In this document: positions 128-25,836 of the stretch, one piece after another
Position numbering within the stretch: the first letter of the stretch is position 1
How the letters are laid out: each line of letters starts with the position of its first letter
Source: a virus
Lineage: Duplodnaviria; Caudoviricetes
Direction: 5' to 3' (one strand)
IMG/VR virus record: IMGVR_UViG_3300028293_000002
Span: 1 to 53,287 of that record
Length of the DNA: 53,287 nucleotides
The notes under the pieces: generated by a model
The model's database searches: none
What the model was told of the DNA's origin: nothing
Seen by the model: the letters and a program-made list of their open reading frames with translations, nothing else
Made by a program: the position numbers and the translations under genes

Positions 128-360
128 TGAGCGTGAACTGGTCCGCCCTTTTTTTTCTGCAACGCAGCGCAGGCCACGTCGACTGCCGGCCAGTCCTTCG
201 CCGCGATGGCAAGTTCCGCCTCCGCCCGCAGACCTTTGATAGAACGTGCCATCGCCTCATCCCTTCCCTGTTGAATCGTCACCACCGACCAGCCGACCAG
301 ATACACCGTCGCCACCACAATGACCGACCAGCAAATCCGGCGATGGGTGCGGAGCGTCAC
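1..360 (-). CDS. Origin-spanning 121-aa membrane-anchored protein with a TPR-like helix pair (continues 53160..53155)
   Basis: GTG at 360 overlaps the upstream TGA. Translates MTLRTHRRICWSVIVVATVYLVGWSVVTIQQ...AHALRGQMFQLEGKIEAAKEEYRAAY...LNKRSK*. Missing from the ORF track because it wraps. Confidence 0.75.
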   Translation of the reverse strand, partial: MTLRTHRRICWSVIVVATVYLVGWSVVTIQQGRDEAMARSIKGLRAEAELAIAAKDWPAVDVACAALQKKKGGPVHAHALRGQMFQLEGKIEAAKEEYRAAYGLGDVTAGGSLAYLNKRS

Positions 361-587
361 TTCTTCGCCTCCCACGAGCCCGGCACGACGCGGCGCCGTC
401 GGTATGGCCCGCCCGGCTTCTCGTCGTGCGCTCCCCTGTCTCGTCTCTCCCGCGCTCGCCCGTTCAAGTTCGGCGGCGGATCGGGCTTCGGCTTATCGTC
501 GCCCTTGCGATGCGTGTACAGGAACACGATTGCCGTGATGAGTGCAACAATTGCAACAACCGCAAAGACCAACCCGAGCCAATTCAT
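357..587 (-). CDS. Small single-TM membrane protein (76 aa)
   Basis: N-terminal hydrophobic helix, basic tail, ATGA-coupled to the upstream gene. Confidence 0.7.
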   Translation of the reverse strand: MNWLGLVFAVVAIVALITAIVFLYTHRKGDDKPKPDPPPNLNGRARERRDRGAHDEKPGGPYRRRRVVPGSWEAKK

Positions 588-841
588 GCCTTAACCTTGT
601 CCGCTAGACTTTGGACCGACGCCGCTTGTTTCTCACCAGAACGAGAAAACGCTATCGCAAGATCGAAAATCTGTTGCCGCAACGCCGCCTCGCGGGCGTC
701 CCGGTCGCGCAGGTAATTCACCGTCTTGTTCCATATCGCCGTGATCGCTGCTCCGATGGTGGTCCCTATGGCGGTGAGCTGGCCTATCGTGATGTTGAGC
801 TCCCCGACATTCACGCTAATCAGAGCATCGGCCGCGAACAT
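584..841 (-). CDS. Small membrane/coiled-coil protein, holin-like (85 aa)
   Basis: AGGAG RBS; TM segment followed by a coiled coil; similar layout to 52282..52650. Confidence 0.6.
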   Translation of the reverse strand: MFAADALISVNVGELNITIGQLTAIGTTIGAAITAIWNKTVNYLRDRDAREAALRQQIFDLAIAFSRSGEKQAASVQSLADKVKA

Positions 842-854
842 TCACGAACTCCTT

Positions 855-1070
855 TTATGTCCGTGGGTCGCAGCGTTCCGCCACGCGCGCCGTCCGGGCA
901 CTGCGGGCAAGCGCGGTCTCGACTGCCATCGTCACATCTCGCGGGCTGGGGGCTGTGACCGTTGGTCTCTTGCCGTGCGCCCAATCGTGCCAGCACTGCA
1001 TCAGGTGCCACGTCACGAACGGCGTGCAGAAAACGACCGCGACACACGCGATGATTTCGAGGGTCAGCAT
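855..1070 (-). CDS. Small single-TM protein (71 aa)
   Basis: MLTLEIIACVAVVFCTPFVTWHL hydrophobic N-terminus. Confidence 0.55.
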   Translation of the reverse strand: MLTLEIIACVAVVFCTPFVTWHLMQCWHDWAHGKRPTVTAPSPRDVTMAVETALARSARTARVAERCDPRT

Positions 1071-1131
1071 GGGGTTTCCCCTGTTCGGTCCATTTGGTTC
1101 TCCCAGGAGAAATGCAGCAAACCGCAAGCCA

Positions 1132-1314
1132 TCACTTGCCCGCCCGCTTGAGCATCACCCGCGCCGCCCGCACCGCTTCCTTGCTGTCCTCCGCGAACCG
1201 CGGGTCGCTGTCGTCGTTCACGTCGTCGCCGGTAATGCCCTCGTCGTCAAAGGCCGCGACCAGGGCGGCGATGCAGGTGAGCAGTTCGTCGGTGGTCGGT
1301 TCCATGCGCTTCAC
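1132..1314 (-). CDS. Small acidic hypothetical protein
   Basis: ORF in operon orientation with AGGAG upstream. Confidence 0.55.
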   Translation of the reverse strand: MKRMEPTTDELLTCIAALVAAFDDEGITGDDVNDDSDPRFAEDSKEAVRAARVMLKRAGK

Positions 1315-1318
1315 ACTC

Positions 1319-3733
1319 CTACGGTGCCAGTATGGACACGTCGTCTACCGCCAGTTCGCCCAAATTCGTGTTCGTCCCGATGAACCCGACGATCGTGGCC
1401 GTGTTGTTGGTCACGTCGGTCACAGTCGACGCCGAGAGCACGCCGTTAATGTGGACGGTGAAATTACTGCTCGAATCGACGGACACTTTGACGACATCGT
1501 TTGTCGCCGGCACTTCGGCCAGCGTGGCGAGCACCGATGGGGCGCCAAACGCAACGACCTTCACGAGCTTGTAGGTGTTCGCCGTGACTTGCAGACCGAT
1601 ATAGTTGCCGAAGTTCGTGGCCCGTAATGCCGCCTTCAGCGTGCGGAACTGGATGCCGTTCGATGTTGACTTGTTCGTGAACTGCAACGACACGTTTGCG
1701 TTGGCGTAGTCGATCAGGGCGGCGCTGGGCGTCCCACCCGCGACAAACTCCATCTTGTTCGACTGGACCGTGACCGTGCCCGTTGGCACGCTCCAGGCGG
1801 TTGCCCCGGTCGTGTCAGGCAAACGGGTATCGAAGCTGGTGCCGTCGGTCCCCGAGCAGCCGTCCGCCATCAGCGTGAGCGACGGGTAGGTCACGCTGAC
1901 CTCGCCGCTGTAGCTGCCGGCGCCGGCCGCGTTCGTCGCCTTGATCCGGTAGTACCGGGTGACGCCGTGGAGCGCTGAAATATCACGTTGGTAGCTCACG
2001 CCCTCGCCGCTGAAGACGCTGGCGAAGCCGCTCCCGCTGCCCGTGGACGATTCCTCAAGGGTGTACGATGTGGCGCCCGTCGCGACGTGCCACGTTGCGA
2101 GGCCCGCGGTCGTGACACCCAAGCTCGCCGGCGCCGCGGGGACGCCAACGAGCGGTACGTCGAAGTTATCGAGCGGGCACAAGAGCGCAGCCGGTCCAGA
2201 ATCGAAGTGCGACCACACCCCGAACCGCGTGCCGGCCGGCGTGAGGGTATAGGTGAACTGGCTGGCGCCGTCGAGATGCGCAGTAAGCGTCCCAGCAACG
2301 ACGCAATCGGCCTCGATGGTATGCGCCCCAGCCGCAAGGGTCACGGCTTTGCGGGCCAGGATGTCGATCCGTTGCCGACTCGTGTTCGAGAACGTGATGC
2401 CGGTGTTGTTGCCGCTGTTGGTCGAGTGGCTGGCTTGCATTGCCGCGCCGGTCACGGTCACATGGTCGATCGTGCAAGTGTCGGCGTTGAACGTGTAGAG
2501 CGGATCGAGGATGCCCGCGATCGTCCAGGCACTTGCCGCGGTCGCTGTGATACCCGACCAATAGAGCGAGCCATTGACCGTCCACGTCTTGCTCGCAACG
2601 CCCGTTCGGCTTCCGCCCGTCCATGTATCTTGATCGCGCAGCGTTACGGTTTTGCTGTTACCCGCCAGCGTGCCCCCGGTCTGGACAATACCCAGCGCCG
2701 AAAGGTTAGCCCCAAGCGTCACCGTGCCCGTGCTGACGCCGATCGTGTCAAGCTGCTGGCCGTTGCTATTGATCGTGCAGGAGCCGGCAACATTGATCCG
2801 GCCCTTGCCGTTGCCGTCGACCCACAAGAGCCCGCCGAGGGCTGTATTCAGATCGAACCCGTCAACGGTCAGCGTGGCCCCGGCCGCGTTGTTGTAGGTG
2901 ATGTCGGTGCCGCTGAACCCGTCGTCAACTGCTGTCAGACTGCCGAGACGATAGGTGCCGCTCGTCCAGTAGAAAATCTGGTGAGCCTCGGCGCCTTGAC
3001 GGTACAAGTTGACCACCGCGCCAACGCTGTAGGTGCCAGGAACAAGGTACGTCGTGCTAGTGGGCTTGATGATCCCAAATGCGATGCTCACCAACCCGTC
3101 TTGCTGAAGAAAGCGTGTGGCGCCGGTCAGAATGACGGTGCCCGCCCCGCTCCAGGTGCCCGTGTTGTACACGTCCGTTCGCTTGACGCTGTTGCGCGTC
3201 AGGTTGAGTTCCGAAGCGCTCGACAGCGTACCGGACGTGTGTAGGTCGACGCCGCCTATCTCCCCGTTCTCCTGCGCGTAACTGCCGGTGATGTTCACCG
3301 TGCCGCGACTCGCCCCGCCGCAACTGAGCTTCCCGAGCGATTTTGAAGTACCCGTCAGGTTGACCGTTGCCCCGCCGAAATCGTCCCGGTTCACCGGGCC
3401 CGTGATTGCTGAGTCGTAATTACCAGCGATGTTCCATGTCGAGGCGCCGAAGGCAATCTTGCCATCGGCCGAGCGGTTCAGGTTGCCCGTGATCGCGTGT
3501 GTCAGTGCGCCGTTGCTCGTGATCGTGCCGCTGACGCCAGCCGAGTAGGTATAGCCGGCGTTGACGCTAAAGTCGGCGACATTGATCGCCTCGTCAATCG
3601 TGCAGTTGGCGGTACTGGTGCCGTCGAAGATGACGCTATCGCCCGCCACGGGCTTCGTATTGCTGCTCCAGTTCGCGGCCGTCGACCAGAGCCCATCGCC
3701 GCCGCCGTTGTCCCAAGTGCGTGTCGCGGGCAT
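1319..3733 (-). CDS. Tail fibre/adhesin (804 aa): beta-helix-like N-terminal part, half beta-sandwich, FN3 domain, C-terminal ConA-like beta-sandwich
   Basis: WDNGGGDGLWSTAANWS start typical of beta-helix adhesins; G/T/S/N-rich; FN3 signature (PAAP...W...ATSY...YYRIKATNAAGAGSYS); position at the end of the tail module. Confidence 0.75.
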   Translation of the reverse strand: MPATRTWDNGGGDGLWSTAANWSSNTKPVAGDSVIFDGTSTANCTIDEAINVADFSVNAGYTYSAGVSGTITSNGALTHAITGNLNRSADGKIAFGASTWNIAGNYDSAITGPVNRDDFGGATVNLTGTSKSLGKLSCGGASRGTVNITGSYAQENGEIGGVDLHTSGTLSSASELNLTRNSVKRTDVYNTGTWSGAGTVILTGATRFLQQDGLVSIAFGIIKPTSTTYLVPGTYSVGAVVNLYRQGAEAHQIFYWTSGTYRLGSLTAVDDGFSGTDITYNNAAGATLTVDGFDLNTALGGLLWVDGNGKGRINVAGSCTINSNGQQLDTIGVSTGTVTLGANLSALGIVQTGGTLAGNSKTVTLRDQDTWTGGSRTGVASKTWTVNGSLYWSGITATAASAWTIAGILDPLYTFNADTCTIDHVTVTGAAMQASHSTNSGNNTGITFSNTSRQRIDILARKAVTLAAGAHTIEADCVVAGTLTAHLDGASQFTYTLTPAGTRFGVWSHFDSGPAALLCPLDNFDVPLVGVPAAPASLGVTTAGLATWHVATGATSYTLEESSTGSGSGFASVFSGEGVSYQRDISALHGVTRYYRIKATNAAGAGSYSGEVSVTYPSLTLMADGCSGTDGTSFDTRLPDTTGATAWSVPTGTVTVQSNKMEFVAGGTPSAALIDYANANVSLQFTNKSTSNGIQFRTLKAALRATNFGNYIGLQVTANTYKLVKVVAFGAPSVLATLAEVPATNDVVKVSVDSSSNFTVHINGVLSASTVTDVTNNTATIVGFIGTNTNLGELAVDDVSILAP

Positions 3734-3734
3734 G

Positions 3735-4121
3735 TTACATTACCCCCGCATACTGCGCAAGGGTGAGGAACGCATTGCTCCCGTCGTCATTCGTCGGCAG
3801 CAGCAGATAACCATTGTTTGCGTCGACCACGCCGAAGGACAGGCCCGAACCAAAGTAGATGCCAGATGCCGGTATCGTCACGTCGACCGCGGCGCACCGG
3901 GCGGTTTGCCCTGCATTAGCGGCGGCGAATAGCGGCGTGCCGTCGGTGGCACTTTCCAGCTTGTTCGAGTTGATGACGCCGGCGCCGCCGTAGATCATGA
4001 ACAGCGGGCCGGAGTCGGGAACATAGACGGCGAGGCTGGTGCCGTCCGCCGCGGTGAAGCGCGAAAGTAATGCTGGCAGCGCGTGCCGCGAGATGATCGG
4101 GATCAGCCGGCTTCTCAGCAT
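3735..4121 (-). CDS. 128-aa N-terminal half of a ConA-like beta-sandwich, paralogous to the C-terminal domain of the 804-aa adhesin
   Basis: DGTS..PD.G..SNK.E..GTP pattern shared with residues ~625-670 of the 804-aa protein; start moved to ATG 4121. Confidence 0.65.
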   Translation of the reverse strand: MLRSRLIPIISRHALPALLSRFTAADGTSLAVYVPDSGPLFMIYGGAGVINSNKLESATDGTPLFAAANAGQTARCAAVDVTIPASGIYFGSGLSFGVVDANNGYLLLPTNDDGSNAFLTLAQYAGVM

Positions 4122-4126
4122 GCCGC

Positions 4127-5194
4127 CTATACCCCCAGGCCCACGATGCGGGGCCGGTAGACTTCGCTGTTCCCTGCTGGAGTGAAACCGCCAGCAGTCG
4201 TGAGATACGCAAAGAGACTCGTGCTGCCGTTCAGCTTTAGCTTGCGGTTGATGTTGTCCGTCTGGACATAGAGTGTCGAGCCAAGGTCGACCGGGGTGCC
4301 GAGGTCGATGTAGCCGAGGAAGGCGCTGCGGTCGCCGCTGGGCAAGTCCCAAGGGTCGTTATCGGAAAGGGCGCTCGGCGGCGTTACGTCGTAGAGGTAT
4401 AAGCGGAACGTCGTCATGCCGGATGGGATGGCGGACACGTCGATTTCGAGGTCAGCGCTCGTGATCAAGACATGGCCATCTGAAGGCCCGGCGGTGGTGA
4501 ACGTGATGGCGCCGCCTACCACGTCGCCGGCCGTGTAGGGCGTCGTGTTCGCGGGCCGCGTCACGGTGGGGCGAGAGGTGTAGGCGTTGCCGAGCACAGG
4601 CACGCTGCCTATCCGTTCCGCTCGCGCCGTCGTCGGGGTGATCACGCATAGCGCCGAGGTCAGCGAACCCAGCGAGGTCACGATGAAGTAGTACCAGACC
4701 CCCTCTTCCATCGTCAGCAGAAGCTGGGAAGGCAGGTTATTCTCTGACCCGCCAACATTCACTGACACCTGATTGAAGTCACCGTAGTTGGTCAGCGTGG
4801 CGAGGTCGAAGAAGCGATAGGTGGTGCCCGTCGCTGCAGCAGCGGTGAACGGGTTCACGTCAGCAAGCGTCCCCGAGGTCGTGATCGACTTGAGCGACAC
4901 GCTGGCGATGGGGATGCCGATTGCCCCGTCCACGTTGAGCTTGCCGATTTCCACGACCAGCGTCAGATCCGCGCTCCCGACTCCGGCAAAGTCCAGCATC
5001 AGGGCATTCACGCCTGGCTGGGCCGCGAGGACGCCGCCGATCACGGCTGAGCTGCTGACGATGTTTGCCATCGCCCCGCTGAGCCTGTTCGGCAGCGTGA
5101 CGGTGTATGTGCTGGGCCAGAGCGTCTTGGCCAGCGTGGCGCCGGCCGCAGTGGCGGTGAAGAATGTTACCGGGGTTCCGAGAGTGAGCGACAT
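4127..5194 (-). CDS. Putative virion structural protein (355 aa, beta-rich)
   Basis: T/G/A-rich; TRPANTTPYTAGDVVG motif; tail-module position. Confidence 0.6.
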   Translation of the reverse strand: MSLTLGTPVTFFTATAAGATLAKTLWPSTYTVTLPNRLSGAMANIVSSSAVIGGVLAAQPGVNALMLDFAGVGSADLTLVVEIGKLNVDGAIGIPIASVSLKSITTSGTLADVNPFTAAAATGTTYRFFDLATLTNYGDFNQVSVNVGGSENNLPSQLLLTMEEGVWYYFIVTSLGSLTSALCVITPTTARAERIGSVPVLGNAYTSRPTVTRPANTTPYTAGDVVGGAITFTTAGPSDGHVLITSADLEIDVSAIPSGMTTFRLYLYDVTPPSALSDNDPWDLPSGDRSAFLGYIDLGTPVDLGSTLYVQTDNINRKLKLNGSTSLFAYLTTAGGFTPAGNSEVYRPRIVGLGV

Positions 5195-5262: not shown

Positions 5263-5571
5263 TCACGTCGATCGTCGGTACGCCGCGCTCACCGCGAGTT
5301 GTCGCTTGTCGTCGTAGTTCCCTTGCACGAATGTCACAGTCAGCGTGTAAATCGCCCCGTCCTCCAGCAGCGCCGCCACGACCGCATCAACGATGGCTTC
5401 GTAGTTCCCGTTCGAGGCCGCGACGTAGCTGAGCGTTCCGCTGCCGATGGTCGCTCCCGCCGAATCGGTCAGCGTGTAGCTGCACGTTCCGGTATTGAGG
5501 TACGTCCCGCTGTCGGAGTCCTTCGCCCCGGTGTACTTGATCAGGTTGTCGCACCCGATGTAAATGTTCAC
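5263..5571 (-). CDS. Small Ig-like virion protein (102 aa)
   Basis: Beta-strand pattern; coupled to the LamG-like gene. Confidence 0.55.
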   Translation of the reverse strand: MNIYIGCDNLIKYTGAKDSDSGTYLNTGTCSYTLTDSAGATIGSGTLSYVAASNGNYEAIVDAVVAALLEDGAIYTLTVTFVQGNYDDKRQLAVSAAYRRST

Positions 5572-6350
5572 GCATCGTTCTCGATGGAAAGCGTTGCCGT
5601 GACTCGTGGAGCCACGCTCAGCGTTGCCGTCACGCGAGCGGATACCGACAGTGAGGCGATTACGATGTCGCCCTCGCGGTCTGCCTCGATGTCGAACGGA
5701 TAATCCAACCCGCCGCCGCGGTTGTAGAGCAGGGCCACGTCGGAACCAGCCGCCGCCGCTTGCCCGACACTAGCCCCGCCGTCGGTCAGCACGCCCGCGA
5801 AGATGCCAGCCAGTTGCACCCATTTCTCATCGAGTTGCCCTTGCTGACGACGCCGACCGATAACCATTGTCGGGCTCGTCCCCGCGAACAGCATCACTTC
5901 TGCGGCCGAGGCAACCAGTACGCTGTTCACGTACAGTTTCGATGTCGCCCCGTCGTTTGTGCCGACCAAATGAATGGGGACGCCCGCAGCATATGTCCCG
6001 CCGGTCGCGGCGCCAAAGCCAAGCGTGCCGTCATCGGCCGCGAACAGCAGTTGTCGCTCAAGCTCAGTAGTGCCAAGCGTGGCAAACTGACCTAGCAGAC
6101 CGTGATCGGCTATCGCACTCAACATCGCCCAGCAGCAGAAGCTCAGCGGGGCGGCGCTGACAACCAGGTCGCTCCGGCTCAAGGAACCGAGGCCGTTGGG
6201 AGCGAAGTAAGCGGCCTGCCCGATGACGCCAGCCGTGCTATCGACTCGCGTATTCGTGAGCGTGGCGGCGCCCACGTCATCGGAGGCATTACCGCCGCTT
6301 CCGGTGTCGTGGCATCCCCACCAGGATGTTGCATTGATCGACAGCGCCAA
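5568..6350 (-). CDS. LamG/ConA-like minor tail protein (260 aa)
   Basis: SFCCW, HLVGTNDGATSKLYVNSVL, VIGR and LYN.G.G motifs typical of LamG_3. Confidence 0.75.
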   Translation of the reverse strand: MALSINATSWWGCHDTGSGGNASDDVGAATLTNTRVDSTAGVIGQAAYFAPNGLGSLSRSDLVVSAAPLSFCCWAMLSAIADHGLLGQFATLGTTELERQLLFAADDGTLGFGAATGGTYAAGVPIHLVGTNDGATSKLYVNSVLVASAAEVMLFAGTSPTMVIGRRRQQGQLDEKWVQLAGIFAGVLTDGGASVGQAAAAGSDVALLYNRGGGLDYPFDIEADREGDIVIASLSVSARVTATLSVAPRVTATLSIENDA

Positions 6351-6672: not shown

Positions 6673-6804
6673 CTATTTGAAATCGGACTTGAAGGTCCAC
6701 AGCATGCGAATCAGAACCGCAGCCATCGCAACGACGCATAAGGCACTGAACAATTTAACGCCCCACGGGACCGACTCAAGGGCTTCTTTGGTTACGATGA
6801 TCAT
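6673..6804 (-). CDS. 43-aa single-TM peptide (not in ORF track)
   Basis: MIIVTKEALESVPWGVKLFSALCVVAMAAVLIRMLWTFKSDFK*; ATGA overlap; fills the gap exactly. Confidence 0.6.
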   Translation of the reverse strand: MIIVTKEALESVPWGVKLFSALCVVAMAAVLIRMLWTFKSDFK

Positions 6805-7190
6805 GCGAAGTCCGCTCCGGTCACGGCCACGTCAAACGATTCTGAATTGTACGGGCATGCCTTGAGTATATGGCTACTCGATGGCAGCACGACATCGAAC
6901 GGCAACGGGAATTGCCGCGCCGTGGGCGGCTTGATCGGTGCCGTCACCGTGAACGCATTGACCGGCAGCACGCCGATGAAGCGGTTGTTGCTCCCGTCGT
7001 AGATGAAGAATGCGATCCAGCCGTCCGTGATCGTCGCAATGGGCGTGACCGTGACGCTCTTGATCCGCGTGCCCGCCGCGACCGCCGTGAGCAGACTCGT
7101 CAGGCTCCCCGTCCCGTCGATTGCCGTGTTGCCAGTGGCGATCCGGGTAGTGGTGAGCCGCGCGGTGCGTTCGTAGAGTGCTCCGGCCAT
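6801..7190 (-). CDS. Small jelly-roll-like virion protein (129 aa)
   Basis: Beta-rich sequence; tail module. Confidence 0.6.
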   Translation of the reverse strand: MAGALYERTARLTTTRIATGNTAIDGTGSLTSLLTAVAAGTRIKSVTVTPIATITDGWIAFFIYDGSNNRFIGVLPVNAFTVTAPIKPPTARQFPLPFDVVLPSSSHILKACPYNSESFDVAVTGADFA

Positions 7191-7202: not shown

Positions 7203-8780
7203 CTAGCCGATCTTTGTCCAGAAGTTCGTGGCGCTCGTGTACACATAGCGGACGACGCCACCCGGCGCGATCACGTCGTCGCCGGCCGAGGGGGCATTAG
7301 AAAACTGGTTGGCCGCTGAACTTGACCCGTTCTCCATCTTCAGCTTCACGTTCTGCGTCGCGCCGACGTTCTTGATGATCACTTCCTGCCCGTCGACTTG
7401 TGACATCGACAAGCCGGTAATGTTCTGGTCGCTACCAAGTGTTGCCGAGACACGCAGGAATTTGGCATTGCCGGGGGCGTAGTTGTCGGCCTGGGCGCTC
7501 AAGGCAGTCGGTGTCACCGTGCCGTAGGTAAGCCATGACGGGAACGAGCCAGCGGAAGTCGTTACCCCGCCAGAACCGTCGAGAACTAGCACGGCGCCGG
7601 TCGTGCCAGTCGCCGTGATGTTCTCGATGTCGATCGACACTGGCCGCGTGCCGTCCAGCCCGCCACCGAGGGCCATCCCGAAGCGCGATGTCGCCAGCGC
7701 GGTAGGAAGGGCGTTCGCTACCGGGTTGCCACCACAGGAACCGCCACAGTCGCATGACCCGCCGCACCCGCAATCGCCGGCCATTCCCGTACTGGACTGG
7801 CCTAGCGTTCCGCCCAGCGGACCGCCAAGGATGCCGGCAGACATCGAAGAAGAGGGCATTCCGCCGGCGGAGCGCTGCTGCAACCCTCCACCCCCACCAA
7901 AACAGGCTTCCCAGTTGGAACAGAACTGGCCGCTCAGGCACTTATAGCAGGGGAAATCGGTTACGGGGTTGCAGGGCTGACACGGCACCGGGCCACCACC
8001 GCCGCCCGTCCCGCCGCCCGTCCCGCCGCTCCCAGGGGTGCAACAATTGGCATACGGCGAGAACGGAGCACCAGCGTCGCAGCCGCAGTTGGGAGGTGCC
8101 GGCGGCGCCGGCAGGGGGTTTGTGGTGGGAAAGATCCGCCCGCCGCCGAGCTGGTAGTTCAGACTGCCCGGTATCGTATGGCCAAGCGTCGCTTCAATCC
8201 AACCGTGGCAATCGCCGGCATCCATCCACATCCAGCAGCAGTTTCCGCAGCAGTTGGTCGCCGTGCCGGGAATGACGTAATAATCCCACTGATTATTTGA
8301 GAGGTGTGTCGGATTGCCCCAATACCAGAACGCGTAGGACGGGCAACTGCCGCCGCCGCCGCTGCCGACACAGCAATCGGACTGGTCGTAGACGAATTCG
8401 AGGGCGGGTCGTCCTGATGATGTTCCATACCACGCCCGCACCACCGATCCCGAGGGGACGTTGCTGAAGTTGTTCATCTCGAACGCCGGCAATCGCGAGA
8501 TGCTGCCGACCTTTTCAGCAGAAATGCTCAGCGCTAATTCAGTACGATTGACGAACTGCCACGCATAAGCCGCAGCCCCCACGTCGCCGCCGAGGTTGGC
8601 TGGATTGACCGCGCCAACTCGAATCCAGATGTTGTCGGTTGGTGCTGGCGTCGGCAGTTCACCGGCCCCAACGTCTAAACTCCCCAGCCCGCCGCCCAGC
8701 CCGCCGCGCGATCGCGCTGACTCTTCAGCGATGTCGCCGAGAATGCCGTGCCGGGAAAAGTTTAGAAGCGTCGACATCAC
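7203..8780 (-). CDS. Cys/Gly-rich tail tip or baseplate protein (525 aa)
   Basis: Second gene after the tape measure; central Cys-rich region with Gly linkers; C-terminal fibre-like domain. Confidence 0.6.
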   Translation of the reverse strand: MMSTLLNFSRHGILGDIAEESARSRGGLGGGLGSLDVGAGELPTPAPTDNIWIRVGAVNPANLGGDVGAAAYAWQFVNRTELALSISAEKVGSISRLPAFEMNNFSNVPSGSVVRAWYGTSSGRPALEFVYDQSDCCVGSGGGGSCPSYAFWYWGNPTHLSNNQWDYYVIPGTATNCCGNCCWMWMDAGDCHGWIEATLGHTIPGSLNYQLGGGRIFPTTNPLPAPPAPPNCGCDAGAPFSPYANCCTPGSGGTGGGTGGGGGPVPCQPCNPVTDFPCYKCLSGQFCSNWEACFGGGGGLQQRSAGGMPSSSMSAGILGGPLGGTLGQSSTGMAGDCGCGGSCDCGGSCGGNPVANALPTALATSRFGMALGGGLDGTRPVSIDIENITATGTTGAVLVLDGSGGVTTSAGSFPSWLTYGTVTPTALSAQADNYAPGNAKFLRVSATLGSDQNITGLSMSQVDGQEVIIKNVGATQNVKLKMENGSSSAANQFSNAPSAGDDVIAPGGVVRYVYTSATNFWTKIG

Positions 8781-17733: not shown

Positions 17734-19218
17734 TCACGCGCCTAGCTTCGCCACGCGGGTCGCGACCGTCGCAACGGTCGCGTCTCGTTCCTTGATCGCG
17801 TTCATCACGTCGCCCCAATCGTCCACGGGCGCCGGCGTGGCGGGCTGTGAGGATTGAACAGCCGCTTTCGCCGGCGCCGTGGTTCCCGTGAGCCGCTTGG
17901 CAAGGCTCGCGGCCTTGGTTCGCTGTCCGTTGCTGATCGGGGCCTTGCTAGTCGCGACCTGCTCCAGAAGCGCCGCGGCATCGCGGACGGTGCCCGTCTC
18001 CGCTTCCTGAACCGCCTTCTGCCGTTCACCCCACCAGCCACGCACGAGGGCACGGGACTTCTGCCGGGCCACGAGTCGCTGTTCGCGCTCATCGTCAGCC
18101 GCGAGTTGTTCGGGAGTGAGCGCCTTGCGCCGCTCGTCGCGCTGCTCCGGCGTCTCCAGCTTGAGGCTCTTTTCGGTGGGCTTGTCGTCTTCCTTCGGCT
18201 CCTCTTCCGGGTCGCCCAGCTTCTCCATGCTGGGGTATCGCTCCTCGTAAACACCCTTGATATGAGACGCAAGGGCATGGATCTTCTCATGCACGCCGCT
18301 GTAGGCTTCGCTGCTCTCCGGCTCCAGCGACTTGCCCTGCTCCTCGGCGAATTCGGACATGGCCAATGCCATTTCGTACATGGCGGCGCCGTACTGGGCG
18401 CCGTGCGGCCGGTGGTCGTCGCTCATGGGCTTGTCTCCATAAAGGCAGGCCGCACCTTTGGCGACCGTGGGTGGCTTGCACTTGTCGCAGCCGCAGTTGG
18501 CAGCGCACGGATGCAACTGTGCGCCGCACGTTTGCAAACGTGCGCCTTGCACGATGGGTGCACGCGCCGGCAGCATGGGCAGGAACAGTTGGCGCAAGCT
18601 GTCCACGACGGGCTTGCCGCCGAGTCCCTTTTCGATGGCAACGACGAGGGCCTCGGGATTGTCGGGAATAAAAACGTGGGACCACTCAAAGAGCAGACAT
18701 TCCTTGATTAGCGCGAACGGCCCGTCACCATTCTTGCTGCGCACCATCTCGATTTGACCGGCCTTCGGCTTGATCTTGATTGACGCACCCGGCAACGCCC
18801 CCATTTCTATAAGCCGGAACGCCTGCTCGCTTTCGAGGGAGTTCTGGAAGAAATACGACGTGCCGAATGTGTCCTCGCCGATCAGTCGCTTGGTGTAGTT
18901 GCCGTCTTGATCTTCTGCGCGAGCAATCGGCATGGTCGCGTTGTGTTGAAGCAAAACGAGCCTATGATGCTGGTGCATTGAATCGTCAATGCCCTTGCCG
19001 ATTACAATGTCATTGCTCAAGTCAGGCGTTGGCGTACTCAGCCTTGACGTTACGCACATCTTCCCAACGTCCACGTCCACCGACTTGGCCGTGTAAGCGC
19101 TAACCATCCCGGCGGGCCATTGCTTCACGCGATAGCCTTCTAGCTGCCTAACGCCTGGTACGCCGCGCGCGGCTAGAAGAAGCTCAAATTGTTCGATGTC
19201 TAAGTTTTTCTCTGCCAT
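17734..19218 (-). CDS. HK97-family prohead protease with a C-terminal scaffold-like extension (494 aa)
   Basis: VLLQHN (His), GASI (Ser), LFEWSHVFIPDNPEA; helical C-terminal half. Confidence 0.85.
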   Translation of the reverse strand: MAEKNLDIEQFELLLAARGVPGVRQLEGYRVKQWPAGMVSAYTAKSVDVDVGKMCVTSRLSTPTPDLSNDIVIGKGIDDSMHQHHRLVLLQHNATMPIARAEDQDGNYTKRLIGEDTFGTSYFFQNSLESEQAFRLIEMGALPGASIKIKPKAGQIEMVRSKNGDGPFALIKECLLFEWSHVFIPDNPEALVVAIEKGLGGKPVVDSLRQLFLPMLPARAPIVQGARLQTCGAQLHPCAANCGCDKCKPPTVAKGAACLYGDKPMSDDHRPHGAQYGAAMYEMALAMSEFAEEQGKSLEPESSEAYSGVHEKIHALASHIKGVYEERYPSMEKLGDPEEEPKEDDKPTEKSLKLETPEQRDERRKALTPEQLAADDEREQRLVARQKSRALVRGWWGERQKAVQEAETGTVRDAAALLEQVATSKAPISNGQRTKAASLAKRLTGTTAPAKAAVQSSQPATPAPVDDWGDVMNAIKERDATVATVATRVAKLGA

Positions 19219-19772
19219 TAACCTGCCTCCGAAAGCAGGCCAAGCAATTGTCCACTGTCTACATCAGGTTCATACAGCCGCAACACGTCTTTCGCATGCG
19301 CCACCAAATCGACCACCCTCTGTCCGGGTGTGTGCTGTTTGACCCACAATTCAAGATTCTCAATTCTGTTGTCGTGTCTGATTCCATTCTTGTGATGGAC
19401 GGTTTCGCCTTTCAGAAGCCTCCGGCCCAAATGAGCCTCCATCACTAACTGATGTTCCTTTACGGATCGTCGTTTACCATCCCTCATAACCCACATCTGC
19501 ACATATCCATTGCTGCAAAATGTTTTCCCGCCTTTCCAATTAGGGCTGGACTCGCCACTTTGCTGGCCTATAGCCATCACTTCAGTTCTCCAGCATCCGC
19601 AACTTCTTGTTGCTCCAACCCTGAAACTTCCGTGACTAACTATTTTTGTGTTCCCGCAATCGCACTTTGCTATCCACGTCGACCTGTTGCGCTTGTCTCT
19701 TGGCCCGCGAGCGATAATAACGAGCCGGCCTTTTCGCTCGCCAATTCGACACTTAGGCGGTGGCATAGCCAC
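19218..19772 (-). CDS. Free-standing HNH homing endonuclease (184 aa)
   Basis: KCDCG...SCGC N-terminus; PNWKGG; VHHKNGIRHDNRIENLEL; visibly AT-richer than the genome. Confidence 0.9.
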   Translation of the reverse strand: MAMPPPKCRIGERKGRLVIIARGPRDKRNRSTWIAKCDCGNTKIVSHGSFRVGATRSCGCWRTEVMAIGQQSGESSPNWKGGKTFCSNGYVQMWVMRDGKRRSVKEHQLVMEAHLGRRLLKGETVHHKNGIRHDNRIENLELWVKQHTPGQRVVDLVAHAKDVLRLYEPDVDSGQLLGLLSEAG

Positions 19773-22136: not shown

Positions 22137-23990
22137 TTATTCTCGGTAGTAGGCCACATGCACATGATACTCTTCCCCGATGTCCAGCCCGCAGAACAGC
22201 AGCCCGCCCTTGCCGTTGCTGTCCACGATGGTCTGCGGGATCGTGCCGTCAGCCACTTCGATCTCAACTGACTCCCCGTCGCGCGTCTCGGTCAGCCGTA
22301 ACCGATGCGGGCCGGTGCCGCTGAGTTCTTCCGTGGCGACGTACTGACCGCTCGGGCAAATCATCCCGCACTGACGCCAGCCGGCGCGGTTGCCGTTCCA
22401 CCCGTCGCCCAGGTGGGCCTCATGGGCGATATGAACGCAGGCGAGCTCGGGCACAATCACCCGCTTGTCGCGCGGCCAGCGCTGGAGGAAAAAGCTGTCC
22501 ACACCGCCGGCACTACAGAACGTCTCGGGCATCACTGGCCACTCGCGGCCGGCTAGGGCGGAGGCGCGAGGGTGCCAGAGGGCGAAGTAGCCGTTCGGTT
22601 CGGTGTTGATGCCGGCGAGCGGGCCGTTTTTTTTGTTCGTGTTCTCCGCTGGCCACAAACCCGTCTCGGCGATCGTCTCAGGAACGCCGTTCCCGTGATC
22701 GTGCCGTGGCACGCCGTACAAAACCCCCGGATTCCACGAGTGCCCGTAGAAGTGCTCCCGCAGCCCAGGATTCAGGAACACGTCGCACGTCACCCACAGA
22801 ATCCAGTCGTGCCCCGGTGCCAACCGCCTCAGCCCGTCGTTCTGTATCTTCCCCAGGTTGAAGGCATCGCCGCCCTCGTGGCAGCGGTTGCTGATGACCG
22901 TGACGGCTTCCGGGTTCTCGCCCAACACGCGCTGCGTTTCAACATCGTCTTCGGTCGTCACCACGATCAATTCATCGACCAGCTTGAGATTGTGCGGGAG
23001 CGTGAGCCGCAGGTGCTCGGCACGGCCGACGCAGACGGTGATGGCGGAGAGTTTCTTCGGGCGAACGTGGGGGTTGTCGACGGCAACGCGAGGACCAGCG
23101 GTATAATTGTCCTTTGTGGTCACGCTGCGATTCTCCGCGATATGCTCGGGTCCGTAGGCGTCGAAGCGGTTGCCCTTGATGGCTGGCGATCCCACGAGCT
23201 GCAAAGCGACGCGGTTCCGGTCGCTCACAATGTCGCGGTCACGGGCGTCTACGGATGACGGCCCACGTTGGGCAAGGGAGCAATTATCGCACAGCTTGAG
23301 CATGTCGCCGAAGTCTTTCGGCTCGCGCTTCCACCAGCCTGGCTCGACTTTCCAGGCATGTTTGCCTCCGTAGAACGTGCGGTCGATGCTGGCCATCACT
23401 TCGCACGGGTACGCGCCGTGCGGGTTGATCGTGGCGCTCCAGAGGTTTTGGACCCAGCAGGCATCGCGCGCCGCTTCCCAGGCTTGAGCGGTTGTTCCAG
23501 TAGCTGCGCAGTAATCGTCACGATGAATGAGTGCGGCCTGATGAAGTCCGCCCGCGGTATGATCATTCGGGTTCCAGTGGGAAAACGTGTCATTAATTGC
23601 TTCAACATGGTCGCGGAAGCGAGGTCCAAAGCTCGTCCAAAGGCCGCGCCCGTTTCCTCGGTCGAATAATCGCCGCCGAGCAAAGGCATCGAAATCCTGT
23701 ATCGGATTCCTTCCTTCAATGCAGTCCTGCCCCGGTCGCCACTCGGCTTTGAAGACATCGCACATCTCCTCGAATCGAGAATGCACCGTCGGCTCGCCAC
23801 CGATGAGGCCCACGACCCGGCCCGGCGCGTCCCAGCCGCGCAACGACCGCAGCGCCGCGCGCAACTGCTCCGGCGTCATTTCTTCCGTCTTCGACTGGTG
23901 GGCGATGAGGCGCGTGCAGTTGCTGCAGTTCAGGAAGCAGCGATTGGTGATGTCGGCGAGGATGATGTCCATCGCGGCGGGCGAGCGCAT
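22137..23990 (-). CDS. Radical SAM / glycosyltransferase (GT-A) fusion protein (~617 aa)
   Basis: ITNRCFLNCSNC (CxxxCxxC), GGEPTVH, twitch-like CWVQ...YPCEV...CDNC; C-terminal LSAITVCVG...DELIVVT...DWILWVTCD...PNGYFALW. Confidence 0.85.
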   Translation of the reverse strand: MRSPAAMDIILADITNRCFLNCSNCTRLIAHQSKTEEMTPEQLRAALRSLRGWDAPGRVVGLIGGEPTVHSRFEEMCDVFKAEWRPGQDCIEGRNPIQDFDAFARRRLFDRGNGRGLWTSFGPRFRDHVEAINDTFSHWNPNDHTAGGLHQAALIHRDDYCAATGTTAQAWEAARDACWVQNLWSATINPHGAYPCEVMASIDRTFYGGKHAWKVEPGWWKREPKDFGDMLKLCDNCSLAQRGPSSVDARDRDIVSDRNRVALQLVGSPAIKGNRFDAYGPEHIAENRSVTTKDNYTAGPRVAVDNPHVRPKKLSAITVCVGRAEHLRLTLPHNLKLVDELIVVTTEDDVETQRVLGENPEAVTVISNRCHEGGDAFNLGKIQNDGLRRLAPGHDWILWVTCDVFLNPGLREHFYGHSWNPGVLYGVPRHDHGNGVPETIAETGLWPAENTNKKNGPLAGINTEPNGYFALWHPRASALAGREWPVMPETFCSAGGVDSFFLQRWPRDKRVIVPELACVHIAHEAHLGDGWNGNRAGWRQCGMICPSGQYVATEELSGTGPHRLRLTETRDGESVEIEVADGTIPQTIVDSNGKGGLLFCGLDIGEEYHVHVAYYRE

Positions 23991-24457
23991 CAATCGTCCT
24001 CCAATCCGAGCGCCGCGTATTCCTCCGGCGTCACTTTGGCACGCACCGAGTCCAGTAGCTTACGCCGTTCAAGCGCACGCTCACGGCGCTGGCCTTCAAA
24101 GCGCTCCCGCTCCTCATCGGCCTTTTTCTTGGCTTCCGCCCTCTGCTCGTCTGACCACTGAGAGAACCGCTGCCCGTGGTCAGACGGAAGGCATCGAATA
24201 ACGGAGCCGGGGTCAAGGCTCATGATCGTACCGTCTTCCCAAAACAGTCGCCCGCCAAGCGCCTCGAATCGACCGCCATCGGGCGAGAAGTACAGACCGT
24301 CTGCAATGTTCATCACGGCTCCCTCCAGCGCCTCGATTCGTTCGGTGAGACGATACATCGGCACGTCGATCATATGCGGAATGTCGCGCATACACTCTGT
24401 ACAAGTGTTGGAACCGCACCGCCGCTTGCTCTCGGCCAGCAGTTCAGCGTCTGTCAT
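23990..24457 (-). CDS. Hypothetical protein (155 aa)
   Basis: Coupled ORF; coiled-coil C-terminus. Confidence 0.65.
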   Translation of the reverse strand: MTDAELLAESKRRCGSNTCTECMRDIPHMIDVPMYRLTERIEALEGAVMNIADGLYFSPDGGRFEALGGRLFWEDGTIMSLDPGSVIRCLPSDHGQRFSQWSDEQRAEAKKKADEERERFEGQRRERALERRKLLDSVRAKVTPEEYAALGLEDD

Positions 24458-24915: not shown

Positions 24916-25836
24916 TTAGGGGAATTCCACGTCGACCAGTTCGCGTGCCTCTGCGATCATGCTATTCGTCTCGTGCAGCTTGCAACAGACCTGGCAGTTG
25001 TGTGCCACCGGCACCGACGCCGGCGCACGGGCCAGGATGCTCGGCAGCGACTCCTGATCCAGCCGCCCGAGTATGTACTCGTCGCCCTTGCCACGCATGT
25101 ACGCGCAGACCGACACCTCGCTCGTCTCCCACACGAACACGCCGCCAACGTGATACCCTTCGCACTGGCTGTACCCGTGCCGCTTGCGGGCCTCGGTGAA
25201 CTTGTAATCCGTGACCTGCAACAGCGGATGTTCGATCCGTGGCGGTTCGATGTCCACCGTCTCGCCGTTCTGCTTGAGGGCCGGGCGTATTTGGACGTAA
25301 TCCGCTTGCACGTCTTCAGCCAGGTGCAAAGTCTGCCATAGATAGTCGTCATCCTGCGGGCCAGCATAGTTGAACGCGAACCCGAGTGTCTTGGCGGCGC
25401 GGAGCGGCTTGATGCAGTCGGGTTTGTACGGCTTGTCGGTCATCGTGACGCGAATCCATTCCATCAGCGACGGGTCGTAGCGCGGAGCGGCGAGAGCGTT
25501 GGTGAACATGCCTTGCTTGAGGCGAAGGCAGTGAGCCGCAATAACAGCTGCGGATATGTGCGGGTAAAGCGACGGTTCGCCGCCACCCGTCCACGAAATC
25601 GACTTAACCCCCATCACGGACGCGTCGACCAGCATGTAATCGAGGACATACCAGTCGAGCATGACGTTTCGGTGCGAGCCGATGGCGCCGCTGGAATACC
25701 CGCAGAAATCGCACGACGCCTGGCACAACCCGGACGGACTGACCTCGATATTCACCGGCACGACGGGCTTGCCGGCCATGTATGCCGAGAACGACGGCGA
25801 GAGAGCGAGCTTCAGGCGCGGGGCGAAGTGGATCAA
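24916..25836 (-). CDS. Radical SAM enzyme with a twitch/SPASM-like C-terminus (306 aa)
   Basis: SGLCQASCDFC, WTGGGEPSL, FTN, SQC...VCAY...LG.L...CQVCC. Confidence 0.9.
   Translation of the reverse strand: MIHFAPRLKLALSPSFSAYMAGKPVVPVNIEVSPSGLCQASCDFCGYSSGAIGSHRNVMLDWYVLDYMLVDASVMGVKSISWTGGGEPSLYPHISAAVIAAHCLRLKQGMFTNALAAPRYDPSLMEWIRVTMTDKPYKPDCIKPLRAAKTLGFAFNYAGPQDDDYLWQTLHLAEDVQADYVQIRPALKQNGETVDIEPPRIEHPLLQVTDYKFTEARKRHGYSQCEGYHVGGVFVWETSEVSVCAYMRGKGDEYILGRLDQESLPSILARAPASVPVAHNCQVCCKLHETNSMIAEARELVDVEFP

Follow-up and report, generated by a model that had tools for sequence, protein, structure and literature searches.

Two adjacent open reading frames (ORFs) on the minus strand of the virus record IMGVR_UViG_3300028293_000002 raise the question of whether one folded domain is shared between two gene products. 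The window analyzed is the whole virus record, 53,287 bp with direct terminal repeats and rated 100% complete. One ORF encodes a 128-residue protein (P0002) and the next an 804-residue fibre/adhesin (P0001). A first-pass annotation had proposed that a single sandwich domain is divided between the two genes by a module of ~450 codons. This proposal is supported by complementary profile matches, by a related locus (L013) with the same gene order, by the motif that opens the module, and by the location of the split in a hairpin. The two pieces are homologous to complementary halves of one domain, the arrangement is conserved, and the halves lie in separate reading frames. The genes at 3735-4121 and 1319-3733 are probably a conserved cassette of two translationally coupled genes that encodes a tail fibre of two chains, with one sandwich made from two polypeptides. 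The domain is related to CBM66 and other concanavalin A (ConA)-like modules, and it was delineated with a profile hidden Markov model (HMM) and AlphaFold2 (AF2) models. The features of the pair are as follows.

3735-4121 including the stop, minus strand: P0002 gene, 128 residues (ORF and translation)
P0002 N-terminal tail, minus strand: ~16 residues, variable, preceding the N-half of the CBM66/ConA-like beta-sandwich
3744-4073, minus strand: N-half of the split sandwich, P0002 residues 17-126, ~9 strands, ending at a hairpin turn (HMM match; AF2 model of the intact copy)
1319-3733, minus strand: P0001 gene, 804-residue fibre/adhesin (ORF; homologues P0034, P0035 and P0038)
2384-3733, minus strand: N-terminal module (the "insert"), ~450 residues, beta-rich and solenoid-like, opening with a TW-NGGG...W...NW motif
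2153-2371, minus strand: C-half of the split sandwich, P0001 residues 455-527, ~6 strands (HMM match; hhalign)
1889-2146, minus strand: fibronectin type III (FN3)-like seven-stranded beta domain, P0001 residues 530-615 (AF2 strands 8-86; blocks with a predicted local distance difference test score, pLDDT, of 54-86)
1322-1876, minus strand: complete sandwich copy, P0001 residues 620-804 (HMM match; AF2, mostly pLDDT >90; Foldseek)

Complementary halves of one sandwich family

P0002 was searched exhaustively with phmmer against 1.84 billion representatives, which gave 30 proteins at E <= 0.001, P0002 included. Most of them carry one to five complete domains of ~180 residues each. Six of the 29 non-self matches (P0004-P0009) are stand-alone proteins of 125-148 residues that align with P0002 from end to end, and none of the 29 has the N-half followed by another module in one chain. 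P0014 and P0026 are apparent truncated fragments of full domains that pass the split point or lack the start, and the repeat protein P0019 was judged unrelated and left out. The annotation had suggested a search for homologues with a contiguous domain. Such homologues were found, and 14 full-length domains were built into a family HMM of 185 positions.

The HMM divides between the two genes. HMM positions 4-113 align with P0002 residues 17-126 (E 6.7e-28) and positions 119-183 with P0001 residues 460-526 (10.4 bits, scored in the whole protein), and P0001 residues 620-798 cover positions 3-180 (E 5.5e-14). With a gap of no more than five HMM positions, the two partial matches complement each other. 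The six stand-alone short forms cover only position 4 to positions 86-112, ending at the same point as P0002, and their N-terminal tails are variable at 14-40 residues. The alignment of the short forms to the family by hhalign has a probability of 99.7% over template columns 9-111. A scan of the 532 stop-to-stop segments of the window with the HMM placed only the P0001 and P0002 genes under E 0.01.

The resemblance of the 128-residue protein to the first half of the C-terminal domain of P0001, which the annotation had noticed by eye, is real and modest. BLASTP aligns P0002 residues 26-63 with P0001 residues 630-669 (14/40 identical, E 0.001), and the Smith-Waterman score of 61 compares with 31.9 +/- 5.8 for shuffles (z = 5.0; reached by 2/500). 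At the DNA level, this likeness appears as two imperfect repeats (D4 and D8) spaced by 2200-2206 nt.

The second half required stronger evidence than the annotation had offered. The pairwise score of P0001 ~446-535 against its own C-terminal domain is 31, compared to 29.2 +/- 5.0 for shuffles, and 169/500 shuffles reach it. The pairwise case is therefore at chance, and it is the point in favor of reading the likeness of residues 455-527 to a second half as a compositional or chance match. The family profile gives a different result. It recovers the register that the annotation had drawn (LTAHLDG, TRFGV, LDNFDV), and it does so with an HMM C-half that is independent of P0001, since the source proteins were picked solely by likeness to P0002. 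Scores of the isolated C-halves against HMM positions 105/124-183, with composition-preserving shuffles, were as follows.

P0001: 16.6 bits, reached by 0/1000 shuffles, top shuffle 9.0
P0034: 17.2 bits, reached by 0/1000 shuffles, top shuffle 7.9
P0035: 31.3 bits, reached by 0/1000 shuffles, top shuffle 11.3
P0038: 34.3 bits, reached by 0/1000 shuffles, top shuffle 8.6

An alignment of the four C-half sequences to the family by hhalign has a probability of 97.4% and an E of 9.9e-12 over template columns 127-186 of 187, and the P0001 match begins where the P0002 match finishes. These data make a chance match improbable in the extreme.

Other searches bear on the family. Neither P0001 nor P0002 passes any Pfam model. 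A word-index search with the short-form alignment found no fused or longer relative among 7998 candidates, which is weak evidence, and a word-index search with P0002 among near lengths recovered only itself from 47 candidates. Scans of viral contigs with P0001, P0002, P0004, P0005 and P0035 found no relatives, and those with P0032 and P0038 found one locus each, without the sandwich family.

Conservation of the gene pair and its junction

Four relatives of P0001 residues 1-535 were identified besides one identical copy. P0034 and P0035 align over the full 1-535 segment, and P0036 and P0037 align only over the N-terminal 9-12%. A further relative came from a metagenome scan with P0009; an earlier scan with a four-sequence alignment gave no relatives among 595 stretches. 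The contig found with P0009 (L013, 7108 bp) carries the P0009 gene (132 residues) followed directly by an 852-residue gene (P0038). P0009 is 29-32% identical to P0002. P0038 aligns with residues 3-642 of P0001 (E 1e-85) and has the N-terminal motif, the module, the C-half and the FN3-like part in the same order, and the homology stops at the start of the C-terminal domain. The genes upstream of the pair in the window and in L013 are unrelated (E 0.34). The shared core, the differing C-terminal domain and the unrelated upstream gene indicate that the pair moves as a cassette whose tip can be exchanged. Two genes upstream of the pair, L013 also encodes a 670-residue fibre-like protein (143-2155, plus strand) that has no counterpart at that place in the window.

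The large proteins with a C-half segment are P0001, P0034, P0035 and P0038. Their overall identities to P0001 are 74% for P0034, 68% for P0035 and 37% for P0038 over 675 aligned columns, and the identities by part are listed below.

N-terminal module: P0034 77%, P0035 72%, P0038 41%
C-half: P0034 70%, P0035 61%, P0038 30%
FN3-like part: P0034 84%, P0035 80%, P0038 35%
C-terminal domain: P0034 71%, P0035 38%, P0038 18%

These identities indicate that the C-half is not decaying and that it is conserved about like the neighboring modules. P0035, an 816-residue metagenome protein, stands out by its C-terminal domain (38% compared to 61-80% for the rest); this tip looks swapped or fast-evolving and resembles mosaic tip exchange between close relatives.

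A tree of 39 N-half sequences places the seven short forms on one side of a branch with a support of 93 in the Shimodaira-Hasegawa-like approximate likelihood ratio test (SH-aLRT), with short-form branch lengths of 0.27-0.94 changes per column. Another, distinct branch with a support of 98 groups the intact C-terminal domains of P0001, P0034 and P0035. The tree favors a single old origin of the split. Because the short forms and the C-terminal domains lie on separate branches, the two sandwich copies in P0001 do not appear to be recent duplicates.

The age of the split bears on whether the locus is simply broken. A stop codon inside a domain is the only point in favor of a recent disruption, whether by pseudogenization of a fibre gene, by an assembly error, or by the excised or population-variable insert that the annotation had allowed for. 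The contigs of two runs from two studies, however, cover the locus without a single difference, joint or loose end, and no excised or variable form was seen in them. Both runs are labeled soil metagenome, one may be the source of the stretch itself, and rare variants could escape a comparison of contigs only. The insert has no flanking direct repeats, in agreement with the annotation. Both ORFs are intact in the window and in L013, and the six further short forms group together in the tree, where their individual branches are long. The split thus appears old and conserved rather than recent, and a recent disruption is hardly credible.

The junction itself conforms to the ORF coordinates, the abrupt stop and the new ATG 1 nt past it that the annotation had described.

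3731-3750, minus strand: junction, with GGGGG (3747-3743), the last P0002 codon ATG, TAA (3737-3735), C (3734) and the P0001 ATG (3733-3731)

P0002 starts 5 nt past the stop of a 355-residue gene, and P0001 starts 1 nt past the stop of P0002. The GGGGG run at 3747-3743 is Shine-Dalgarno-like and lies ahead of the P0001 ATG. In L013, the TAG of the small gene shares one base with the GTG of the large gene, and a G-run again lies upstream. We infer that a G-run at Shine-Dalgarno distance from both starts fits translational coupling of two separate products.

The same proximity could be taken to mean that a programmed frameshift, a hop or read-through joins the two ORFs, in which case the domain would be nested in one chain and not split. 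The ORFs are 1 nt apart or overlapping, and both loci have five consecutive G ahead of the junction. In L013, the 9 codons that precede the start of the large gene contain no stop in its frame, which would in principle allow a -1 slip on the G-run. However, the large gene lies in the +1 frame relative to the small gene in the window and in the -1 frame in L013. In the window, the P0001 frame also has a TAA three codons 5' of the ATG, directly after the G-run, and a slip on this run yields no fusion. Both large genes have a start of their own with the G-run at Shine-Dalgarno distance, and P0034 and P0035 are called as starting directly at the module motif. The differing frames and the TAA after the G-run make a conserved frameshift very unlikely.

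The module at the break was compared with cellular proteins. Its motif and its first 40-290 residues are common to bacterial proteins; 195/600 pattern-matching stretches in genome contigs were relatives. The sandwich family was absent from the best 80 of these 195 loci that were kept (L014-L093; 0/80 in a profile scan over 93 loci). P0037 (573 residues) has the motif at its start and ends shortly after a G-N-T-N-W-N-F-S stretch that is similar to the module ends of P0001 and P0038. The insert thus resembles an entire module of cellular type, one that is common in bacterial surface proteins. The assemblies carrying the motif are labeled Chloroflexota, Saccharibacteria, Planctomycetota, Acidobacteriota (Pyrinomonadaceae) and others, with no clear host signal.

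The annotation had described the insert as a beta-helix adhesin module of ~450 codons with its own ATG. The module and its start hold, as its first residues carry the motif that opens the related bacterial modules, and the beta-helix is not confirmed by any family model. The module matches no family in Pfam, PHROG or NCBIfam, a single-sequence AF2 model of the whole 804-residue protein has a pLDDT of 35, and the Atlas structural neighbors with LRR_5 or Beta_helix_4 have template-modeling (TM) scores of 0.26-0.39, under the bar for naming. A beta-helix fold of the module is plausible.

The sandwich fold and its proposed two-chain assembly

The intact copy defines the fold. An AF2 model of P0001 530-804 from a 17-row alignment (pLDDT 86.5; predicted TM score, pTM, 0.77) has an N-terminal beta domain of seven strands followed by a sandwich of two sheets. 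The annotation had called the first of these FN3. The AF2 model bears out a seven-stranded beta domain, and no family model confirms the name: Pfam fn3 (PF00041) has no match in this part even at E 10, and the Atlas feature neighbors named FN3, with scores of 0.76-0.78, are a lead only.

Foldseek found 200 PDB matches to the intact sandwich at E <= 0.001, and these are ConA-like modules. Against CBM66, the TM score by target is 0.71-0.74 (4b1l, 0.74, root-mean-square deviation 3.1 A), and there are also matches to GH43, to GH32 C-terminal domains and to a mycobacteriophage central fibre. The family profile that includes the intact C-terminal domain (A4) matches the CBM66 chains of Bacillus subtilis levanase (PDB 4b1m, 4azz and 4b1l), which belong to the ConA-like superfamily, with E 3.5e-12 to 5.1e-12, and it covers these chains nearly whole. 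The Pfam neighborhood of the sandwich is PF06439 (3keto-disac_hyd) and PF13385 (Laminin_G_3), and P0025, one of the full-length members of the family, scores marginally above the PF06439 cut-off (27.1 bits compared to 26.8). The short-form profile alone found no solved relative. CBM66 binds fructan. The complete C-terminal copy in P0001 may be a distal sugar-binding tip.

In CBM66 and every other relative seen, the domain lies on one uninterrupted chain, whereas one copy in the window is split over two ORFs with a 450-residue module at the break. HMM positions 113-119 correspond to the turn between AF2 strands 192-197 and 204-209 of the intact copy, which places the split in a beta-hairpin. 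For the split copy, the sandwich fold is deduced from the profile alignment and from the complex model.

The annotation had suggested a multimer model of the 128-residue protein with the C-half region of the 804-residue protein, and this model favors an interaction. The short-form alignment combined with large-protein residues 440-535 gave values of 0.87, 0.87 and 0.84 for the interface score ipSAE (interaction prediction score from aligned errors), compared to 0.00 for the best of 3 controls. The ipSAE mark that was applied is reached by 58/80 solved complexes and 2/110 mismatched pairs, a rough calibration that used our own alignments. The runs agree in at least 86% of their contacts, with 348-364 contacts each. 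The pLDDT of each half is 75-83 with the true partner and 49-53 with unrelated partners. The predicted strand pairing joins P0002 residues 118-122 with P0001 residues 459-464, 64-67 with 504-508, and 79-80 with 471-472 and 521-524. According to these models, the two products quite probably co-fold into one heterodimeric sandwich, which would make the small protein an obligatory subunit.

Several observations weigh against this conclusion. The passing score of the complex model may reflect likeness to solved single-chain ConA-like folds. The Atlas model of P0002 alone (pLDDT 0.70, pTM 0.63) resembles small ConA-like domains (TM by query 0.51-0.73), and P0002 alone may have some fold of its own. 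The C-half reaches only the 10.4 bits given above in its P0001 context, the branch support of the short forms is under the 95 mark, and the genomic context of the pair was read at two loci only, the window and L013. The anchoring role considered below is something that we infer.

The Atlas model of P0002 alone leads to another interpretation, in which P0002 is a compact lectin-like tail protein that suffices by itself, as a single chain or a homo-oligomer, and P0001 455-527 is a decayed remnant or a linker. The neighbors of its Atlas model include clusters of 121-123 residues (TM 0.52-0.62), P0002 has a weak PHROGs match to "tail protein" (E 0.011), and the C-half scores weakly in its P0001 context. 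However, the small proteins end at about position 110 of 185, in mid-sandwich, and both halves feed the sheets. With identities of 70/61/30% in the three homologues, the C-half is kept about as well as the modules on either side of it, and its score is 31-34 bits in two of these homologues. The adjacency of the two genes is conserved at ~35% identity, and the pLDDT of the halves rises from 49-53 to 75-83 only with the true partner. A self-sufficient P0002 is unlikely on this evidence.

The preferred interpretation is a sandwich assembled from both chains, and it can be extended to a mechanism. P0002 would supply the first ~nine strands and P0001 ~455-527 the last six of one CBM66/ConA-like beta-sandwich. 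The break at the beta-hairpin turn would be the exact site where the ~450-residue solenoid-like module joins the second half. Such a break would be tolerated, and perhaps required, since an elongated solenoid has widely separated ends and, with covalent links on both sides, would not fit into a tight hairpin. The composite domain would then be a structural joint: P0002, through its variable N-terminal tail, would attach the fibre to the virion, and a solenoid arm and an FN3-like-plus-lectin arm would point outward. This final step of the mechanism is the least certain. Taken as a whole, the composite joint, the short-form tails as phage-specific docking peptides, and the CBM66-like domain as the distal sugar-binding tip are a tentative proposal that we would not yet favor. 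The broader idea has nearly an even chance of being correct, if slightly below it: a conserved, transferable cassette in which a bisected lectin sandwich acts as a non-covalent snap fastener that links the tail to a solenoid adhesin of host origin and to a lectin tip that can be exchanged, with the chain break being required.

Phage setting and relation to known split systems

The 128-residue and 804-residue genes are the final two large genes of a structural module on the minus strand that runs from ~28 kb down to 1.3 kb. The module includes genes for the large terminase, portal, major head protein, head-tail adaptor and a tape-measure-like protein. A search for tRNA genes in the window was negative, and blastn in distant mode gave no DNA match for the window among GenBank phages.

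Several neighboring ORFs are of interest in their own right.

4127-5194, minus strand: 355-residue gene, directly upstream of the 128-residue gene
5568-6350, minus strand: 260-residue protein that passes Pfam Laminin_G_3 (30.3 bits compared to 27.6), an extra ConA-like module in the tail-fibre cluster
6801-7190, minus strand: 129-residue ORF with a marginal match to sandwich profile positions 106-145 (8.0 bits, sequence E 0.048)
7203-8780, minus strand: 525-residue protein with long Gly/Cys-rich stretches and a weak C-terminal match to Phage_depo_C (15.4 bits, under the cut-off of 25)
19218-19772, minus strand: HNH endonuclease gene (phrog_20891, E 4.4e-32) within the head module, flanked by the portal gene and a 494-residue ORF
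22137-23993 and 24916-25836, minus strand: two ORFs between terminase and portal with weak PHROGs matches to radical S-adenosylmethionine / iron-sulfur oxidoreductases (E 4.5e-5 and 2e-5)

The C-terminal 140-150 residues of the 355-residue protein are kept in 11 viral contigs (27-68% identity) with varying downstream genes, and this part may be a fibre-attachment or baseplate domain. These 11 loci show no synteny for the 128-residue/804-residue pair. The match of the 129-residue ORF could be a further fragment of the sandwich family or chance. The two oxidoreductase-like ORFs are unusual content for a packaging and head region.

Phage genes in pieces have precedents. The cases given in PMC2988022 are Aeh1 nrdA split by mobE, T4 topoisomerase gene 39/60 split by mobA, and the phage 25 DNA polymerase 43A/43B. 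As in the window, a coding region that is contiguous in relatives is cut there into two polypeptides by inserted DNA, and the pieces in these described cases must re-assemble to function. The inserts described there are free-standing homing-endonuclease genes or untranslated spacers, and the split genes encode enzymes (PMC2988022). Unlike these, the insert in the window is a structural module translated with the downstream piece, and the split unit is a small fibre beta-sandwich. Pfam, PHROG and NCBIfam scans detected no nuclease family at the junction or in the insert, and the sole HNH gene of the window is the one at 19218-19772.

The branched receptor-binding systems of Klebsiella and CBA120-type phages are described as joining fibre proteins through docking peptides or N-terminal domains (PMC13352976, PMC13579863, PMC7506556). 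They resemble the cassette in having a conserved non-covalent interface with distal binding domains that are swapped. The interfaces in those descriptions lie between complete domains or peptides, whereas the interface proposed here would be the interior of one fold. No homology to those proteins emerged, although no search was aimed at it.

Incomplete folds that are completed by the strands of another chain, as proposed for this pair, occur in two other settings. In the donor-strand complementation of chaperone-usher pili, a pilin lacks a single strand and is completed by another chain. Split inteins ligate their flanks and leave. The pilins miss one strand, whereas ~6 of 15 strands would come from the partner here. 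A split intein was considered for the locus and rejected, as Pfam scans of P0001 and P0002 gave no intein or Hint family.

In open-access full text, which is what the literature search covered, there was no description of a lectin sandwich or small virion-fibre beta-sandwich that is shared between two proteins and conserved across distant phages. Split genes with re-assembling products are already known for phage enzymes, and the fibre beta-sandwich would be the new element. The arrangement is also a warning for annotation, as half-domains may be hidden among the short "hypothetical" genes that precede fibre genes. If the halves co-fold, they would be a natural protein-fragment-complementation pair that fixes a 1:1 stoichiometry between the fibre and its partner, and an example of an elongated module "inserted" into a compact domain. 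Such a pair would offer a possible handle for modular receptor-binding exchange in phage engineering.

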